A stretch of DNA of 37,340 bases from a virus: the UHGV virus genome UHGV-0142298; one strand, written 5' to 3'. Under the pieces are notes generated by a model that did not search any database, was not told where the DNA came from, and was given only the letters and a program-made list of their open reading frames with translations. Position 1 is the first letter of the stretch, and every line of letters starts with the position of its first letter. Both the position numbers and the translations under genes were made by a program. Shown here in pieces: positions 12,059 through 36,740 of this stretch.

Positions 12059-12351
12059 TCTGTTTAGTATTAGCATCAATTTCTCATCAGATGCTATTCA
12101 ACAATACAAATTACCCATAAACCTCGTTTTTACGGGGTTTTGTTATATTTAAACATTACCGAATAGGTATAAATCTCGATTGTCGATGGTATTGGTTGTG
12201 TGACAATACCTAGTCTTTCCGGTATGCCTGATGAGAATACAAACGACAGATTATGTAAGGGAAACGCGCTGAATCTTTAACTCTTTCATGCTGAGTGATT
12301 TGACGTTATATTTTTAGCCGTAAGTGAAGAGCAAACGCATGGAGCGACAAA

Positions 12352-28030: not shown

Positions 28031-28090
28031 TGAAAAACGTTTTATGTGAAACCGCCTCCGGGCGGTTTTGTCGTTTATGGAGCGTTAGGA

Positions 28091-31000
28091 ATGGGTAAAG
28101 GCAGCAGTAAGGGGCATACTCCGCGCGAAGCGAAGGACAACCTGAAGTCCACGCAGTTGCTGAGTGTGATCGATGCCATCAGCGAAGGGCCGGTTGAAGG
28201 TCCGGTAGATGGATTAAAAAGCGTGCTGCTGAACAGTACGCCAGTGCTGGACATTGAGGGGAATACCAACATCTCCGGCGTCACGGTGGTGTTCCGGGCC
28301 GGTGAGCAGGAGCAAACACCGCCGGAGGGATTTGAATCCTCCGGCTCCGAGACGGTGCTGGGTACGGAAGTGAAATACGACACGCCGATCACCCGGACCA
28401 TCACGTCGGCAAACATTGACCGACTGCGTTTTACCTTCGGCGTGCAGGCACTGGTGGAAACCACCTCAAAGGGGGACAGGAATCCGTCGGAAGTCCGCCT
28501 GCTGGTTCAGATACAACGTAACGGTGGCTGGGTGACGGAAAAAGACATCACCATTAAAGGCAAAACCACCTCACAGTATCTGGCCTCGGTGGTGGTGGGT
28601 AACCTGCCGCCGCGCCCGTTCAATATCCGGATGCGCAGGATGACGCCGGACAGCACCACAGACCAACTGCAGAACAAAACGCTCTGGTCGTCATACACCG
28701 AAATCATCGATGTGAAACAGTGCTACCCGAACACGGCACTGGTCGGCGTACAGGTGGACTCGGAGCAGTTCGGCAGCCAGCAGGTGAGCCGTAATTATCA
28801 TCTTCGCGGGCGCATTCTGCAGGTGCCGTCGAACTATAACCCGCAGACGCGGCAATACAGCGGTATCTGGGACGGAACGTTTAAGCCAGCATACAGCAAC
28901 AACATGGCCTGGTGTCTGTGGGATATGCTGACCCATCCGCGCTACGGCATGGGGAAACGTCTTGGTGCGGCAGATGTGGATAAATGGGCGCTGTATGTCA
29001 TCGGCCAGAATTGCGACCAGTCAGTGCCGGACGGCTTTGGCGGCACGGAGCCGCGCATCACCTGTAATGCGTACCTGACCACACAGCGCAAGGCGTGGGA
29101 TGTGCTCAGTGATTTTTGCTCGGCGATGCGCTGTATGCCGGTATGGAACGGGCAGACGCTGACATTCGTGCAGGACCGACCGTCGGATAAGGTGTGGACC
29201 TATAACCGCAGTAATGTGGTGATGCCGGATGATGGCGCGCCGTTCCGCTACAGCTTCAGCGCCCTGAAAGACCGCCATAATGCCGTTGAGGTGAACTGGA
29301 TTGACCCGGATAACGGCTGGGAGACGGCGACAGAGCTTGTGGAGGACACGCAGGCCATTGCCCGTTACGGTCGTAACGTCACGAAGATGGATGCCTTTGG
29401 CTGTACCAGCCGGGGGCAGGCACACCGCGCCGGGCTGTGGCTGATTAAAACGGAGCTGCTGGAAACGCAGACCGTGGACTTCAGCGTGGGTGCAGAAGGG
29501 CTTCGCCATGTACCGGGCGATGTCATTGAAATCTGTGATGATGACTATGCCGGTATCAGCATCGGTGGTCGCGTGCTGGCGGTGAACAGCCAGACCCGGA
29601 CGCTGACGCTCGACCGTGAAATCACGCTGCCATCCTCCGGTACCACGCTGATAAGCCTGGTTGACGGAAGTGGCAATCCGGTCAGCGTGGAGGTTCAGTC
29701 CGTCACCGACGGCGTGAAGGTAAAAGTGAGCCGTGTTCCTGACGGTGTTGCTGAATACAGCGTATGGGGGCTGAAGCTGCCGACGCTGCGCCAGCGTCTG
29801 TTCCGCTGTGTGAGTATCCGTGAGAACGATGACGGTACGTATGCCATCACTGCCGTGCAGCATGTACCGGAGAAAGAAGCCATCGTGGATAACGGGGCGC
29901 ACTTTGACGGTGACCAGAGCGGCACGGTGAATGGTGTCACGCCGCCAGCAGTGCAGCACCTGACCGCAGAAGTCACTGCAGACAGCGGGGAATATCAGGT
30001 GCTGGCGCGATGGGACACACCGAAGGTGGTGAAGGGCGTGAGCTTCCTGCTTCGCCTGACCGTGGCAGCGGATGACGGCAGTGAGCGGCTGGTCAGCACG
30101 GCCCGGACGACGGAAACCACATACCGCTTCAGGCAACTGGCGCTGGGGAACTACAGGCTGACAGTCCGGGCGGTAAATGCGTGGGGGCAGCAGGGCGATC
30201 CGGCATCGGTATCGTTCCGGATTGCCGCACCGGCAGCGCCGTCGCAGATTGAGCTGACACCGGGGTATTTTCAGATAACCGCCACGCCGCATCTTGCGGT
30301 TTATGATCCGACGGTACAGTTTGAGTTCTGGTTCTCGGAAAAACGGATTGCTGATATCAGGCAGGTTGAAACCAGCGCGCGTTATCTTGGTACGGCGCTG
30401 TACTGGATAGCCGCCAGTATCAATATCAAACCGGGTCGTGATTATTACTTTTATATCCGCAGTGTGAACACCGTCGGCAAATCGGCATTCGTGGAGGCTG
30501 TTGGTCGGGCGAGCGATGATGCGGAAGGTTACCTGGATTTTTTCAAAGGCCAGATAACCGAATCCCATCTCGGCAAGGAGCTGCTGGAAAAAGTCGAGCT
30601 GACGGAGGATAACGCCAGCAGACTGGAGGAGTTTTCGAAAGAGTGGAAGGACGCCAGTGATAAGTGGAATGCCATGTGGGGCGTCAAAATTGAGCAGACC
30701 AAAGACGGCAAACATTATGTCGCGGGTATTGGCCTCAGTATGGAGGATACAGAGGAAGGCAAACTGAGTCAGTTTCTGGTTGCCGCCAATCGTATCGCGT
30801 TTATTGACCCGGCAAACGGGAATGAAACGCCGATGTTTGTGGCGCAGGGCAACCAGATATTCATGAACGACGTGTTCCTGAAACGCCTGACGGCCCCCAC
30901 CATTACCAGCGGCGGTAATCCTCCGGCATTTTCCCTGACACCGGATGGGCGGCTGACGGCGAAAAATGCCGATATCAGCGGTAACGTGAATGCGAACTCC

Positions 31001-31486
31001 GGGACGCTCAACAACGTCACGATTAACGAGAACTGTCGGGTTCTGGGAAAACTGTCCGCGAACCAGATTGAAGGCGATCTCGTTAAAACAGTGGGCAAAG
31101 CTTTCCCCCGGGACTCCCGTGCACCGGAGCGGTGGCCATCAGGGACCATTACCGTCAGGGTTTATGACGATCAGCCGTTTGACCGGCAGATTGTTATTCC
31201 GGCGGTGGCATTCAGCGGCGCTAAACATGAGAGAGAGCATACTGATATTTACTCCTCATGCCGTCTGATAGTGCGGAAAAACGGTGCTGAAATTTATAAC
31301 CGTACCGCGCTGGATAATACGCTGATTTACAGTGGCGTTATTGATATGCCTGCCGGTCACGGTCACATGACGCTGGAGTTTTCGGTGTCAGCATGGCTGG
31401 TAAATGACTGGTATCCCACAGCAAGTATCAGCGATTTGCTGGTTGTGGTGATGAAGAAAGCCACCGCAGGCATCAGTATCAGCTGA
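28091..31486 (+). CDS. Host specificity / central tail fibre protein J
   Basis: About 1130 aa, N-terminus [24 protein letters not shown] as lambda J; followed by a terminator. Confidence 0.9.
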
Positions 31487-31553: not shown

Positions 31554-32153
31554 ATGCGTAAAGTTTGTGCAGCCATTTTGTCCGCAGCCATCTGTCTGTC
31601 CGTATCCGGTGCGCCTGCATGGGCATCTGAACATCAGTCCACGCTGAGCGCGGGGTATCTTCATGCCTCGACGAACGTTCCCGGCAGCGATGATCTTAAC
31701 GGGATTAACGTGAAATACCGTTATGAGTTTACGGACACACTGGGGCTGGTGACGTCATTCAGCTATGCAGGAGACAAGAATCGCCAGCTTACCCGTTACA
31801 GCAATACCCGCTGGCATGAAGATTCCGTGCGTAACCGCTGGTTCAGCGTGATGGTGGGGCCGTCTGTGCGCGTGAATGAATGGTTCAGCGCGTATGCGAT
31901 GGCGGGTATGGCTTACAGCCGTGTGTCGACTTTTTCCGGGGATTATCTCCGCGTAACTGACAATAAGGGGAAAACGCACGATGTGCTGACCGGAAGTGAT
32001 GACGGTCGCCACAGCAACACGTCTCTGGCGTGGGGAGCTGGCGTGCAGTTTAACCCGACCGAATCCGTGGCCATTGATATTGCTTATGAAGGCTCCGGCA
32101 GTGGTGACTGGCGCACTGACGGTTTCATCGTGGGTGTCGGTTATAAATTCTGA
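31554..32153 (+). CDS. lom: Lom/Ail-family outer membrane beta-barrel protein
   Basis: 199 aa with signal peptide, alternating-residue beta-strands, C-terminal GYKF; position after J as in lambda. Confidence 0.85.
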
Positions 32154-32178: not shown

Positions 32179-32207
32179 CAGCCCGCCGGTTCAGGCGGGC
32201 TTTTTTG
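32179..32207 (+). terminator. Intrinsic terminator after lom
   Basis: GCCCGCC-GGTTCAG-GCGGGC hairpin plus TTTTTT. Confidence 0.65.
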
Positions 32208-32217
32208 TGGAGTGGAT

Positions 32218-34623
32218 ATGGCAGCAGTAAAAATCTCAGGTGTGCTGAAAGATGGTGCGGGAAAACCAATACAGAACTGCACTATTCAACTGAAGGCAAA
32301 GCGTAACAGCACCACGGTACTGGTGAACACGGTGGCTTCTGAAAATCCGGATGAAGCCGGACGTTACAGCATGGATGTTGAGTATGGCCAGTACAGCGTC
32401 ACCCTGCTGGTTGAAGGTTTTCCGCCTTCACATGCCGGGACCATTACCGTCTATGAAGGCTCCAGACCAGGTACGCTGAATGATTTTCTCGGTGCCATGA
32501 CGGAAGATGATGTCATGCCGGAGGCATTGCGTCGTTTTGAGGCAATGGTGGAAGAAGTGGCACGCAACGCCGAAGCCGCCTCTCAGAGCGCAGCGGCGGC
32601 AAAGAAATCCGAAACTGCAGCGGCATCATCAAAGAACGCGGCGAAAACCTCAGAAACGAATGCAGCTAATAGTGCACAGGCGGCAGCGACCTCAAAGACT
32701 GCATCGGCAAACTCCGCGACAGCAGCCAAAAAATCAGAAACCAACGCGAAAAATAGCGAGACAGCCGCAAAGACGAGCGAAACCAACGCAAAGTCCAGCC
32801 AGACGGCAGCGAAAACCAGCGAAACGAATGCCAAAGCCAGTGAAACTGCGGCAAAAAACAGCCAGGTTGCAGCAGCCCAAAGCGAGAGCGCGGCAGCCGG
32901 TTCTGCGACTTCAGCAGCTGGATCAGCAACTGCTGCGGCTAACAGCCAGAAAGCTGCGAAGACGAGTGAAACTAACGCAAAGTCCAGCCAGACGGCAGCG
33001 AAGACCAGCGAAACGAATGCCAAAGCCAGTGAAACTGCGGCGAAAAGCAGTCAGGATGCAGCGGCCCAAAGCGAGAGTGCCGCAGCCAGTTCTGCAAGCG
33101 CGGCGGCTGCTTCTGCCACTGCATCAGCTAACAGTCAAAAAGCAGCAAAAACCAGTGAAACCAACGCAAAGGCGAGCGAGACTGCGGCGGCGAACTCGGC
33201 GCAAGCATCGGCAGCAAGCCAGACAGCAGCTAAAGCAAGTGAAGACGCAGCCAGAGAGTATGCAAGCCAGGCAGCGGAGCCGTATAAACAAGTTTTGCAG
33301 CCGTTGCCCGATGTGTGGATACCGTTTAATGATTCACTGGATATGATTACGGGCTTTTCGCCATCATATAAAAAAATTGTTATTGGCGACGATGAAATAA
33401 CAATGCCTGGCGACAAGATTGTAAAGTTTAAACGCGCATCGAAAGCAACTTACATTAATAAATCTGGTGTGCTGACAGAGGCTGCCATTGACGAGCCACG
33501 ATTTGAACGTGATGGCCTGCTTATTGAGGGGCAAAGAACTAACCTGCTAATCAATTCAACAAATCCGACTAAATGGAACAAGTCGTCAAATATGATCTTA
33601 AGTGCATCAGGTGTAGATGATTTCGGATTCCAGTACGCAAAATTTACATTAAAACCAGAAATGGTAGGGCAAATTTCAGCGATTAACATAGTAACCGTTT
33701 CCGGCAGTAAAGGTTTTGATGTAACAGGCGGAGAAAAGTATGTAACCATATCATGCAGGGTGCAAAGTGGCACTCCAAATTTAAGATGCCGATTACGATT
33801 TGAAAACTATGATGGTTCTACCTACACATTCTTAGGTGACGCTTACTTAAATACGACAGATTTATCTATTGATAAGACGGGTGGTGCCGCTAATCGCATT
33901 ACTGCAAGGGCTGTTAAAGATGAAGCAAGCAAATGGATCTTTTTTGAGGCGACAATTAAGGCACTTGATACAGAAAATATGATAGGTGGAATGGTTCAGT
34001 ATGCCCCGGCAAAAGGAGTGGGCACTGGCGCGGATGATTATATTTATATTGCGACCCCTCAAGTTGAAGGTGGGGCGTGCGCTTCATCGTTTATTATAAC
34101 AGGCGCATCCCCTGTAACACGCGCCAGCGATATTGTAACGGTCCCCATTTCTCTAAATTGGTGCAATCCCGCTATTAGTTCATTAGCAGAAGTTAATACC
34201 AATTGGGATGAATCGCCAAACAAAGAAGGTAGCGCACGTATTCTTAATATTTCCACTACGGGAGATACAACTGAAATTGCAGATGAAAGTTATATGTATT
34301 TGGGGTATACATCTTTGGGAGCACGCGCAATCATTACAAATGGTAAAGGCACTAAAATAGAATATAAAAGCGTTATAGAACGACCAGAGAGAAAAAGTAT
34401 TATCGGCTTTAGATTCACAGAAAGTCGAGAATTGTGTGTTGTGGTTAACGGTAATATTGGTGCTAAGGTAGTTTCTCCTTATAAAAAACACAAATATACA
34501 GGAGGCTTCATTAATATTGGTGGTCAATCATCATCCGGCAACCGTCACCTATTTGGACACGTTCGAAATCTGCGTATTTGGCACAAGGCATTGACTGATG
34601 CTCAGATGGGGGAGTCAATCTAA
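32218..34623 (+). CDS. stf: Side tail fibre protein (Stf-like) with internal repeats and a divergent AT-rich C-terminal receptor-binding region
   Basis: N-terminus MAAVKISGVLKDGAGKPIQNCTIQLKAKRNSTT matches lambda Stf; middle part is imperfect AAKTSETNAKASETAAK repeats; base composition drops sharply from about 33300. Confidence 0.8.
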   Translation: MAAVKISGVLKDGAGKPIQNCTIQLKAKRNSTTVLVNTVASENPDEAGRYSMDVEYGQYSVTLLVEGFPPSHAGTITVYEGSRPGTLNDFLGAMTEDDVMPEALRRFEAMVEEVARNAEAASQSAAAAKKSETAAASSKNAAKTSETNAANSAQAAATSKTASANSATAAKKSETNAKNSETAAKTSETNAKSSQTAAKTSETNAKASETAAKNSQVAAAQSESAAAGSATSAAGSATAAANSQKAAKTSETNAKSSQTAAKTSETNAKASETAAKSSQDAAAQSESAAASSASAAAASATASANSQKAAKTSETNAKASETAAANSAQASAASQTAAKASEDAAREYASQAAEPYKQVLQPLPDVWIPFNDSLDMITGFSPSYKKIVIGDDEITMPGDKIVKFKRASKATYINKSGVLTEAAIDEPRFERDGLLIEGQRTNLLINSTNPTKWNKSSNMILSASGVDDFGFQYAKFTLKPEMVGQISAINIVTVSGSKGFDVTGGEKYVTISCRVQSGTPNLRCRLRFENYDGSTYTFLGDAYLNTTDLSIDKTGGAANRITARAVKDEASKWIFFEATIKALDTENMIGGMVQYAPAKGVGTGADDYIYIATPQVEGGACASSFIITGASPVTRASDIVTVPISLNWCNPAISSLAEVNTNWDESPNKEGSARILNISTTGDTTEIADESYMYLGYTSLGARAIITNGKGTKIEYKSVIERPERKSIIGFRFTESRELCVVVNGNIGAKVVSPYKKHKYTGGFINIGGQSSSGNRHLFGHVRNLRIWHKALTDAQMGESI
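32560..33250 (+). repeat. Imperfect tandem and long direct repeats inside stf
   Basis: About 150-bp near-identical direct repeats (roughly 32770-32920 and 32950-33100) built from shorter repeat units. Confidence 0.7.
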
Positions 34624-34904
34624 TGAAAGATTTAACACTCAAATTTGCCGACAGGGCCGACTTTTCGGCCTTTATGGGAAGTATTGGCTATTATAATGAC
34701 GAGTCGATGCAGGATGATATTCTGATTGATGTGATAGGTAACGTGTACAAAGAAACCGGAGAGCTGACTGAAGATGGCGAACCGGTATGTGTTAAGGAAG
34801 ATGGATATTTTGTAAACGTGCGCATCATTAAGGATACGCAAATATCGTCATTATTCGATGAATACGCGGTTGCTGTTGAGCATCAACTTCGTGGCTGGAT
34901 GTGA
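34623..34904 (+). CDS. Hypothetical small protein coupled to stf (possible fibre chaperone)
   Basis: 93-aa ORF whose ATG overlaps the stf stop (TAATG); acidic; does not resemble lambda Tfa. Confidence 0.4.
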   Translation: MKDLTLKFADRADFSAFMGSIGYYNDESMQDDILIDVIGNVYKETGELTEDGEPVCVKEDGYFVNVRIIKDTQISSLFDEYAVAVEHQLRGWM

Positions 34905-34913
34905 GGTAGAGAA

Positions 34914-35618
34914 ATGGCTACATCAACAGTAATTCCGGGAGACATCACCACGCTGAAGGGAGATGTTAGTAAAGCAAAGGAAGATATTTCCTCTATTAAC
35001 GGAAAAGTATCAACGCTTCAGACTGATATGGCCAGTGCAAAGCAGGATATCAGCACCAGATACACAAAAACTGAAGTTGATAATAAGCTGAAAAACAAAG
35101 TGGAAGTGAACGATCTGGAAAGTGGTCGTTATGGCGGAGATTTTTACCCGCTGACTGGCCGTGAAGCGTTTTATTTATGGGGATTGGGCACAACTACAGC
35201 GGCGGCAAATCTTTATCTTAATCCTGACCCTGCAATTTCGTCTGTGCTGCGGTCAACATCGTCTATCCGCTATAAACATTCAGTAGAGACGATAGATTCA
35301 GAGCACGCCGATCTCATTTTCAGGATGCGCCCTGTGTGGTACAGGTCGCAATGCGAAAATGACAGGCGTGACTGGGGATTCTATGGATTGATTGCCGAGG
35401 AAGTTGGAGAAATTGCCCCTCAGTTTGTTCACTGGCGACCAGCCAACGAAGATGATGCACCGGAAACCATTTCCAGCAATGGCCTTGTTGCCGAAGGTGT
35501 AATGTACGAACGTCTGGTTGTTCCACTGATTCACCATATCCAGAAGCTGACTGAAAGAGTTGATGAACTTGAGTCAGAATTAAAGTTGTTATCCGTTTCC
35601 CGAAGCGATATCGGATAA
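34914..35618 (+). CDS. Fibre-like protein with C-terminal intramolecular chaperone domain (peptidase S74-like)
   Basis: N-terminal coiled-coil; C-terminal segment SSIRYKHSV...WGFYGLIAEEVGEIAPQFV...YERLVVPLIHHIQKLTERVDELESELKLL fits the S-D-x-R-x-K ... IAQEV ... LLIEAIKEL pattern of auto-cleaving fibre chaperone domains. Confidence 0.55.
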   Translation: MATSTVIPGDITTLKGDVSKAKEDISSINGKVSTLQTDMASAKQDISTRYTKTEVDNKLKNKVEVNDLESGRYGGDFYPLTGREAFYLWGLGTTTAAANLYLNPDPAISSVLRSTSSIRYKHSVETIDSEHADLIFRMRPVWYRSQCENDRRDWGFYGLIAEEVGEIAPQFVHWRPANEDDAPETISSNGLVAEGVMYERLVVPLIHHIQKLTERVDELESELKLLSVSRSDIG

Positions 35619-35628
35619 AGGAGGCGTA

Positions 35629-35922
35629 ATGGATATAACACCTTTCCTTCATGCACTTTGTGCTGTGGCTGCGCAGGTACTGGTTGGTCTTTTTACCGGA
35701 AACTGGGCTTACGGGGCGATAGCTGGTTGTACGTTCTTCATTGCGCGTGAACATACCCAGGCAGAATATCGCTGGATTGAAATGTTCGGGCATGGCAAGC
35801 GAATGAATATGCCGTGGTGGGGCGGTTTTGATCCGCGAGCTTGGGATGTGGCAAGCCTGATGGATTTTGCTGTGCCGGTGGTGGCGTGTCTGCTGGTCTG
35901 GCTGTTGGTTAATCGTGGGTGA
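35629..35922 (+). CDS. Small predicted membrane protein
   Basis: 97 aa with hydrophobic segments at both ends; RBS GGAGG upstream. Confidence 0.35.
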   Translation: MDITPFLHALCAVAAQVLVGLFTGNWAYGAIAGCTFFIAREHTQAEYRWIEMFGHGKRMNMPWWGGFDPRAWDVASLMDFAVPVVACLLVWLLVNRG

Positions 35923-36149
35923 AAAAAGGTGAGCTGTATATGCAACGGAGGAAGAAACCTCGTTGCGGGAAGCCTTGAAGAAGTATCGGGTGTTGCTGAA
36001 CCGTGTTGATACGTCAACTGCACAGGATATTGAATGGCCAGCACTGCCGTAGGGTAAAACATATAAATTCTATAATTAGATGTATCTTTCCATTTACGGC
36101 AAGGAAGGGGGCTTGGAAGACGTAAGGCATCTCACACCGAGATTATTTT

Positions 36150-36740
36150 TTATATGTCAGGTGTCTGAAGTTTTGCTTTGGCTCTTAAAATGGTTTGCCG
36201 CGAGGTTTTGAATTCCCGGGCAATGGCACTTATACTTACACCTGACTTAATCCGTTCGAATACCACCTGTTTCTGTTCTTCATTTAACACAGGTGGTCGA
36301 CCAAAACGTTTCCCTGCGCCCCGGGCTCTTACTATCCCGGAATGAGTGCGTTCAAGTAAAAGGTCTCGTTCAAATTCAGCGACTGCTGAAATTACTTGCA
36401 TCATCATTTTTCCTGTTGGACTGGTCAGGTCAATGCCCCCCAATGCTAAGCAATGCACTCTGATACCTGTTTCGGTCAGTTGTTCCACTGTTTTCCTGAT
36501 ATCCATTGCATTACAACCAAGGCGATCCAGTTTTGTCACAATCAATTGATCACCACATTTCAGGCGAGCAAGCAACCGGTTAAAACCAGGACGCTCACTG
36601 GTTGCTGCTGAGCCGCTAATGTGTTCTTCGATTATTTGCTGAGGTTTGATTTTAAAACCTGCACTTTCGATTTCCCGGCGTTGATTTTCGGTGGTCTGAT
36701 CCAGCGTTGATATCCGACAGTAAGCAAAAATTCGAGACAT
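36150..36740 (-). CDS. Serine recombinase (DNA invertase/resolvase family)
   Basis: N-terminal catalytic motif ([12 protein letters not shown]), central conserved block, C-terminal HTH; 196 aa, typical invertase size. Confidence 0.8.

Follow-up and report, generated by a model that had tools for sequence, protein, structure and literature searches.

Lateral tail fibres built from two proteins have already been described in T5-like phages. In DT57C and DT571/2, the second protein, LtfB, is held via the first, LtfA, by a short conserved N-terminus, as shown genetically (PMC4728585, PMC10713586), and in IrisVonRoten (Tequintavirus, BASEL Bas32) Gp24 has been modelled as a distal "T-shaped" fibre on the proximal fibre Gp22, whose C-terminus bears a protruding galectin-like domain (BASEL 2025, PMC11990801). 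Here we analyse the genes that follow stf, the side tail fibre gene, in virus genome UHGV-0142298 (37,340 nucleotides; "the window" is this whole stretch), which is a lambdoid E. coli prophage. Three tightly packed plus-strand open reading frames (ORFs) lie 3' of stf, encoding proteins of 93, 234 and 97 residues (orf93, orf234 and orf97), with the coordinates and order given in the initial annotation. The locus is a lambdoid instance of the two-protein lateral fibre design, to which two uncharacterised small protein families are added, and nothing here overturns current ideas on fibre assembly. With moderate confidence, the region can be viewed as the distal end of a side-tail-fibre cassette that is modular, encodes two fibre proteins and has replaced the 3' end of stf and the tfa gene of a Qin-site lambdoid prophage, with a separate membrane gene at its end.

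As judged by sequence comparison, the C-terminal 450 residues of Stf together with orf93 and orf234 form a low-GC block whose genes are homologous, one by one, to those at lateral-fibre loci in Drexlerviridae, Seuratvirus and T5-like phages. The gene order is that of gp22-gp23-gp24 in IrisVonRoten, where gp23 is an orf93 homologue (38% identity) and Gp24 possesses both the N-terminal motif and the terminal S74 domain that are seen in orf234. It is also that of Drexlerviridae (KarlJaspers bas06_0037/36/35; SECphi27 gp81/80/79), in which the fibre gene is followed by an overlapping 92-residue gene and then by an S74 protein; these Drexlerviridae proteins are nearest to orf234 if lambdoid phages and prophages are set aside. 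The C-terminal 450 residues of Stf are 50% identical to IrisVonRoten Gp22 (455 aligned positions), 51% identical to the VogelGryff fibre and 41% identical to the KarlJaspers fibre, and contain an 80-residue stretch that is nearly identical in these lytic-phage fibres. The gene directly after each of the three fibres encodes a protein with 38-53% identity to orf93, and a tblastn search with orf234 detected proteins of the same length, with 57-62% identity, in many lytic Drexlerviridae. The initial annotation regarded the arrangement as unusual; however, the order of an stf C-terminus, a 92-residue gene and an S74 protein gene is common in lytic coliphages. There are clear differences too. IrisVonRoten is lytic and T5-like, it has no orf97 homologue at its fibre locus, and its Gp24 is 574 residues long with two receptor-binding domains, whereas orf234 has only about 50 residues between its coiled coil and its cleavage site. 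In the Drexlerviridae, the N-terminal attachment domain of the fibre is unlike that of lambda Stf and no membrane gene is present.

One lateral-fibre cassette is therefore seen to move among temperate lambdoid prophages and coliphages that are strictly lytic (T1-like, Seuratvirus and T5-like). Its components would be a lectin-tipped proximal fibre, a partner protein of 92 residues, and a distal fibre that plugs in and bears a self-cleaving chaperone domain; its boundaries of exchange are the middle of stf, the first 8-20 or so codons of the distal gene, and tfa. Knowing where these boundaries lie helps in predicting host range and in constructing chimeric fibres. The features of the locus are as follows.

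32212-34623, plus strand: stf, side (proximal) tail fibre of 803 residues (Pfam phage_tail_N, PDB 9e7m, phrog_1419).
33274-34623, plus strand: exchangeable C-terminal module of Stf, residues 355-803 (low GC, hypervariable, homologous to lytic-phage fibres).
34623-34904, plus strand: orf93, small acidic protein (phrog_1361; start coupled to stf).
34914-35618, plus strand: orf234, candidate minimal distal fibre protein with an S74 domain (Pfam S74, phrog_3299).
34914-34958, plus strand: conserved N-terminal motif of orf234, MATSTVIPGDITTLK, the presumed docking peptide (the motif occurs in other downstream proteins).
35256-35276, plus strand: predicted auto-cleavage site of orf234, T115|S116, with K121 at +5 (T5 pb1 geometry).
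35259-35615, plus strand: intramolecular chaperone (S74/ICA) domain, orf234 residues 116-234 (profile search of the PDB).
35629-35922, plus strand: orf97, conserved, predicted three-helix membrane protein (phrog_1443, AlphaFold2).
35933-36052, plus strand: tfa 3' relic (Caudo_TAP, RefSeq annotation).
36150-36740, minus strand: pinQ-type serine invertase, apparently an orphan (Pfam Resolvase and HTH_7).

The Stf protein consists of an N-terminal tail attachment domain, a shaft of Ala/Ser/Thr-rich repeats and a C-terminal module of about 450 residues. The phage_tail_N family of Pfam matches residues 5-134 (E=5.5e-67), a structure deposited as "Tail fiber protein" (PDB 9e7m) matches residues 5-97, phrog_1419 matches over the full length, and NCBIfam GTA_spike_fiber matches residues 437-638. 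Stf is homologous to a described proximal fibre, IrisVonRoten Gp22, and is probably one itself. In the shaft, at 32633-33189, there are direct repeats of 21, 42 and 189 nucleotides that encode Ala/Ser/Thr-rich, SETNAK-type units, and the difference in length between Stf variants of about 800 and about 680 residues is mostly due to repeat number. In RefSeq NZ_CP127316.1 (L168, 3119-5122), an intact stf is labelled a pseudogene "missing C-terminus", and its last 400 or so nucleotides are left unannotated; it is likely that the lectin-type C-terminal module was not recognised.

Where does the imported block begin and end? GC content is 0.549 in stf codons 1-354 and falls to 0.411 in codons 355-803, 0.422 in orf93 and 0.455 in orf234, and it is 0.527 in orf97. 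The break within stf, at 33274, coincides with the onset of homology to lytic-phage fibres and so marks the left-hand junction of the imported cassette, while by composition orf97 lies outside the imported low-GC block. Between orf97 and pinQ, the spacer translates into a 39-residue C-terminal remnant of Tfa followed by a stop codon. This remnant corresponds to Caudo_TAP positions 95-130 of 131 (E=1.2e-13), and in RefSeq it is annotated as a partial "tail fiber assembly protein, missing N-terminus". The tfa relic is the right-hand recombination junction of the cassette replacement. Taken together, the GC drop and the tfa relic indicate that an imported block replaced the 3' half of stf and most of tfa. 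The loss of a Tfa-type chaperone that was proposed in the initial annotation is thus borne out, with no Caudo_TAP domain found by Pfam search in orf93, orf234 or orf97. Compared with the Stf-Tfa system of lambda, the Stf N-terminus and the locus are the same and orf93 holds both the position and the coupling of tfa; unlike Tfa, it has no similarity to Caudo_TAP, and of tfa itself only the relic persists here.

The modular nature of the cassette is apparent from 80 E. coli prophage loci of IMG/VR, retrieved with orf97 as the handle. The distal gene is of the 234-residue type, as in the window, in 35 of the 80 loci and of a 346-residue type in 21; it is absent from 23, which run stf-orf92-orf97, and the one locus left over is truncated. 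In contrast to this optional gene, orf93 is present in all 79 interpretable loci. Among distinct alleles from loci of the window type, the last 450 residues of Stf have a median identity of 48%, whereas the medians are 88% for orf93, 96% for orf234 (range 91-100%) and 98% for orf97. The hypervariability of the Stf C-terminus beside conserved neighbours points to it as the main determinant of specificity, and the C-terminal module is probably the main receptor-binding part. Because the distal type varies or is missing, the distal protein is an optional, exchangeable add-on, of which the 234-residue version contributes something constant. The three ORFs were treated as one trio in the initial annotation, a grouping that does not survive: orf93 accompanies Stf, the S74 gene can be missing or exchanged, and orf97 differs in GC content and is absent from the lytic cassettes inspected. 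A divergent, 89-residue allele of orf93 (IMG/VR loci L023, L031 and L066) always accompanies an Stf ending in NLRFWNRALSDTQLKEYV, and it is paired with distal proteins that open with MVTKT rather than MATST, at lengths of either 227 or 346 residues. This linkage suggests that recombination had its breakpoint just within the distal gene's N-terminal motif.

The orf93 protein is small and acidic, as had been noted from its sequence, with an isoelectric point of 4.19 and 19 Asp plus Glu residues versus 8 Lys plus Arg. Its ATG overlaps the stf stop codon (TAATG) and a G-rich ribosome-binding site, GGGGGAG, lies upstream. It matches phrog_1361 (E=2.7e-44) and has no relative in Pfam, NCBIfam, PADLOC or the PDB; with no Pfam or NCBIfam family matched, it cannot be placed in the Caudo_TAP family. 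Homologues are found in 181 phage records, from lambdoid phages (including phage 21), Drexlerviridae, Dhillonvirus, Seuratvirus, T5-like and, partially, rV5-like phages, and in all loci inspected the homologue is directly 3' of a fibre gene. In loci that lack a distal gene, orf92 alleles are under purifying selection, with a ratio of nonsynonymous to synonymous substitution rates (dN/dS) of 0.32. Retention of orf93 under selection where there is no distal gene indicates that it serves Stf and not the distal protein. From its coupling, constancy and position, orf93 probably takes the place of Tfa as a dedicated assembly factor or adaptor of the fibre; it may work like Tfa, without belonging to the Tfa family. 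In the DT57C literature (PMC4728585, PMC10713586), no small gene is described between ltfA and ltfB.

The 234-residue protein had been proposed to end in an auto-cleaving S74 domain, and by profile match and motif it belongs to the S74 class. Pfam PF13884 (Peptidase_S74) matches residues 116-172 with E=4.7e-6 and 27.2 bits, above the gathering cut-off of 22, and the cleavage motif is present. In T5 pb1, scission takes place at Thr1263|Ser1264, with Lys1269 further on, and replacing the Ser with Ala stops cleavage (PMC4690869). The corresponding region of orf234, V111-L-R-S-T115-S116-S-I-R-Y-K121, has the same spacing of Thr-Ser and Lys at +5, and in an alignment of 11 homologues S117 does not vary, while S116 and K121 hardly do. 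When the family profile was compared with the PDB, the C-terminus of DT57C LtfA was the best match (E=6.2e-8), followed by MYRF (1e-4) and the distal subunit of the S16 long tail fibre (2e-3). Upstream of the domain, residues 7-56 are heptad-like, and their matches to trimeric coiled coils are weak (P22 needle, E=0.0046; Lpp and fibritin, E=0.15-0.5). Cleavage at the predicted site would yield products computed at 12.4 kDa (residues 1-115) and 13.8 kDa (residues 116-234). The tip and chaperone unit of orf234 also ends much longer fibres, among them the 1385-residue family phrog_3299, to which orf234 aligns at positions 1147-1384.

T5 pb1 and the K1F endosialidase likewise have a C-terminal S74 domain, a Thr-Ser scissile bond and Lys at +5; in these proteins, though, the domain follows a receptor-binding or enzymatic body of several hundred residues, whereas the mature orf234 chain would be only about 115 residues long. 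What, then, would place orf234 among distal fibres? Six otherwise different downstream proteins open with M-A/V-T-x-T-x-IP-x-DIT-x-LK, and every one of them is closed by an S74 domain, although their sizes run from 225-235 residues in Drexlerviridae and 234 in orf234 to 346 in Tritos, 388 in VogelGryff and 574 in IrisVonRoten Gp24. A conserved N-terminal segment is thus joined to an exchangeable remainder, as expected of a distal-fibre gene, with 234- and 346-residue types found behind the same Stf and orf93. This is reminiscent of DT57C, where LtfA and LtfB both end in auto-cleaving S74 domains, but LtfA carries an S74 domain of its own and Stf here does not. The N-terminus of LtfB would resemble the orf234 motif in role. 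The orf234 protein is best regarded as a distal fibre subunit of minimal size, whose mature part would have about 115 residues, rather than as a trans-acting chaperone.

The third protein, orf97, matches phrog_1443 and is hydrophobic, and its AlphaFold2 model has three helices (residues 4-23, 26-52 and 74-96) with a mean confidence score (pLDDT) of 90.7, in agreement with its earlier prediction as a membrane protein. Across E. coli, Aeromonas and Comamonas, members of the family are still 57-68% identical and share an invariant REHTQAEYRWI...MPWWGGFD segment, with E41, H42, Q44 and D68 among the invariant residues. Homologues were counted in 75 phage records, and many genomes have them as well. 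None was seen in those fibre loci of Drexlerviridae, Seuratvirus and T5-like phages that were inspected, and orf97 does not belong to the fibre cassette. Directly behind a receptor-binding gene, a homologue is found in a P22-like phage (where tailspike and int flank it), in a phage-plasmid and in Cobetia phage Carin-5, and homologues also follow receptor-binding genes in lambdoid prophages of Citrobacter and Comamonas and in large lytic phages. Within the tail operon of P2/HP1-like prophages from Aeromonas and Leclercia, the homologue adjoins the gene of an S74 fibre or overlaps with it. In P22, the interval between tailspike and int is the usual place of lysogenic-conversion genes. A species-level genome scan produced 70 orf97 loci, about 15 of them in prophage tail contexts, and many in ordinary chromosomal contexts (Aeromonas, Alphaproteobacteria) with Pirin, DNA ligase or DAHP synthase genes upstream. 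The protein is best described as a member of a cellular membrane-protein family that has been captured repeatedly behind receptor-binding genes. Together, orf93 and orf97 represent two abundant small protein families for which we found no published study, and our literature searches found no experimental work on the orf93, orf234 or orf97 proteins. A holin function for orf97, an idea prompted by the Comamonas prophage context, was rejected because of the roughly 60% conservation across classes and the non-phage contexts; lambdoid phages also encode their lysis genes elsewhere.

The initial annotation had left orf234 as either a short second fibre or a trans-acting chaperone derived from one, and of these the short second fibre is better supported, by the motif and the gene position. 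As a chaperone, orf234 would be a fibre tip turned to folding Stf in trans, outside the virion, with its S74 domain nucleating trimerisation of the Stf C-terminus. Several observations lean that way and weigh against a distal subunit: the mature part is very small, it is highly conserved while Stf C-termini vary, which is unlike a typical receptor-binding protein and would fit a generic helper, and the Drexlerviridae homologues are annotated in BASEL as "putative lateral tail fiber chaperone". The assignment of orf93 to Stf has its own weak points. The AlphaFold2 model of orf93 is poor (pLDDT 46.5), being built on a shallow alignment of 82-97% identity, and too poor for a fold search. Among 1.84 billion representative proteins no informative fusion pointed to a partner: in the 61 clusters retrieved, full-length homologues were all stand-alone proteins of about 90-100 residues or fragments, and the other matches were short, weak repeat-stretch matches in three long proteins. 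Moreover, orf93 alleles covary with both Stf and the distal N-terminus, a pattern confounded by linkage. Nevertheless, a trans-acting chaperone is improbable. The same Stf type and orf92 occur, with no such distal gene, in phage 21 and in 23 of the 80 prophage loci, and since phage 21 is functional in this state, orf234 is not an essential Stf chaperone. The N-terminal motif and the gene position are common to the large receptor-binding proteins of Tritos, VogelGryff and IrisVonRoten, and characterised S74 domains, such as that of T5 pb1 (PMC4690869), fold and cleave their own upstream chain. The shared motif, the position of the gene and the receptor-binding bodies of larger proteins in the same position favour a virion-attached distal subunit. 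It could also be argued that the three ORFs are decaying recombination debris at an stf-tfa-pin locus, given the clear mosaicism (the GC break, the tfa relic and the orphan pin) and the alignment of orf234 to the C-terminal end of a 1385-residue fibre family. This is effectively refuted: all three ORFs are intact, have good ribosome-binding sites and are under purifying selection (dN/dS versus prophage alleles of 0.28 for orf93, 0.089 for orf234 and 0.087 for orf97, as expected of real genes), and same-length homologues are present in plaque-forming lytic phages.

For orf97, the corresponding question is whether, in concert with the fibre genes, it excludes superinfecting phage or masks the receptor; exclusion had been suggested in the initial annotation. 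Such a role would suit a gene that immediately follows receptor-binding genes in lambdoid, P22-like, P2/HP1-like and large lytic phages and in a phage-plasmid, and a membrane protein with a strongly conserved polar loop. However, orf97 stays about 60% identical beside wholly different receptor-binding proteins and so is not specific to one receptor; because these neighbours differ completely, any target of orf97 must be generic. Copies in the non-phage chromosomal contexts of Aeromonas and Alphaproteobacteria, and an apparent coupling to late genes with no promoter of its own, also speak against exclusion. No known exclusion family was matched: there is no lipobox of the kind expected of Cor/Llp-type lipoproteins (Cys11 is not conserved), no match in PADLOC, Pfam or NCBIfam, and nothing specific in fold searches. 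These data neither support nor exclude the suggestion, and we consider exclusion unlikely, if somewhat less so than a chaperone role for orf234; exclusion or envelope modification is a guess. The absence of PADLOC matches led us to reject the idea of a defence system. A more speculative proposal, which we hold to be rather doubtful, is that orf97 belongs to an enzyme-like inner-membrane family, captured by at least five unrelated phage architectures behind their receptor-binding genes, that acts late to alter a conserved process of the envelope (for example, lipopolysaccharide, O-antigen or glycan display) as a receptor-independent barrier for progeny and superinfecting phage, and that orf93 typifies a new, non-Tfa class of assembly factor for lectin-tipped fibres.

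If the region is a two-protein fibre cassette, its products could work as follows. Stf would be the proximal fibre, with its hypervariable, lectin-like C-terminal module as the main receptor binder. Translated in step with Stf, orf93 would act on or with this module and fill the role of Tfa. The orf234 protein would trimerise via its C-terminal S74 domain and then cut itself at T115|S116 by means of Ser116 and Lys121, leaving a mature protein of about 12 kDa in which the docking peptide leads into some 55 residues of coiled coil and a tip of about 50. Through its conserved N-terminal peptide, this subunit would be plugged onto the trimer of Stf and form a distal branch or cap that is short and conserved. 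The orf97 protein is probably expressed with the late operon, and the foremost guess is that it affects the cell envelope.

The window carries, on the plus strand, J (28046-31486), lom (31554-32153) and then stf. A RefSeq chromosome that is 99.9% identical to the window has ydfK, ynfT and a truncated ydfJ downstream, which identifies the Qin prophage site, and the entire 5.2-kb stretch was found in 108 of 5426 complete E. coli genomes. The orf93 stop codon and the orf234 start are separated by 9 nucleotides, with GAGG as the orf234 Shine-Dalgarno sequence, and 10 nucleotides separate the orf234 stop from the orf97 start, which is preceded by AAGGAGG. A consensus-match scan detected no sigma-70-like plus-strand promoter between stf and orf97, and the sole terminator-like match in the stf-orf97 region is weak and lies within stf. 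Co-transcription in the late operon, suggested solely by this absence of consensus promoter and terminator matches, is a further point on which our reading of the region is vulnerable. Between lom and stf, at 32180-32201 (plus strand), there is a strong terminator-like hairpin with 8 base pairs (7 G-C) and a T run after it, so stf and the three ORFs presumably depend for their expression on late transcription that is antiterminated. Rfam and tRNA scans of the region found no Rfam family and no tRNA gene, and its minus-strand ORFs matched no family.

The adjacent pin gene raised the possibility of an invertible fibre segment, which was rejected in the absence of crossover cores, inverted repeats and reverse-strand fibre cassettes. 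No gix/pix-like crossover core of the AAACCNNGGTTT type is near the locus, the only match in the window, at 12119, being at chance level, and there is no inverted repeat longer than 22 nucleotides, nor a long one flanking a fibre segment. The pinQ-type invertase is apparently an orphan from an older stf-tfa-pin arrangement.

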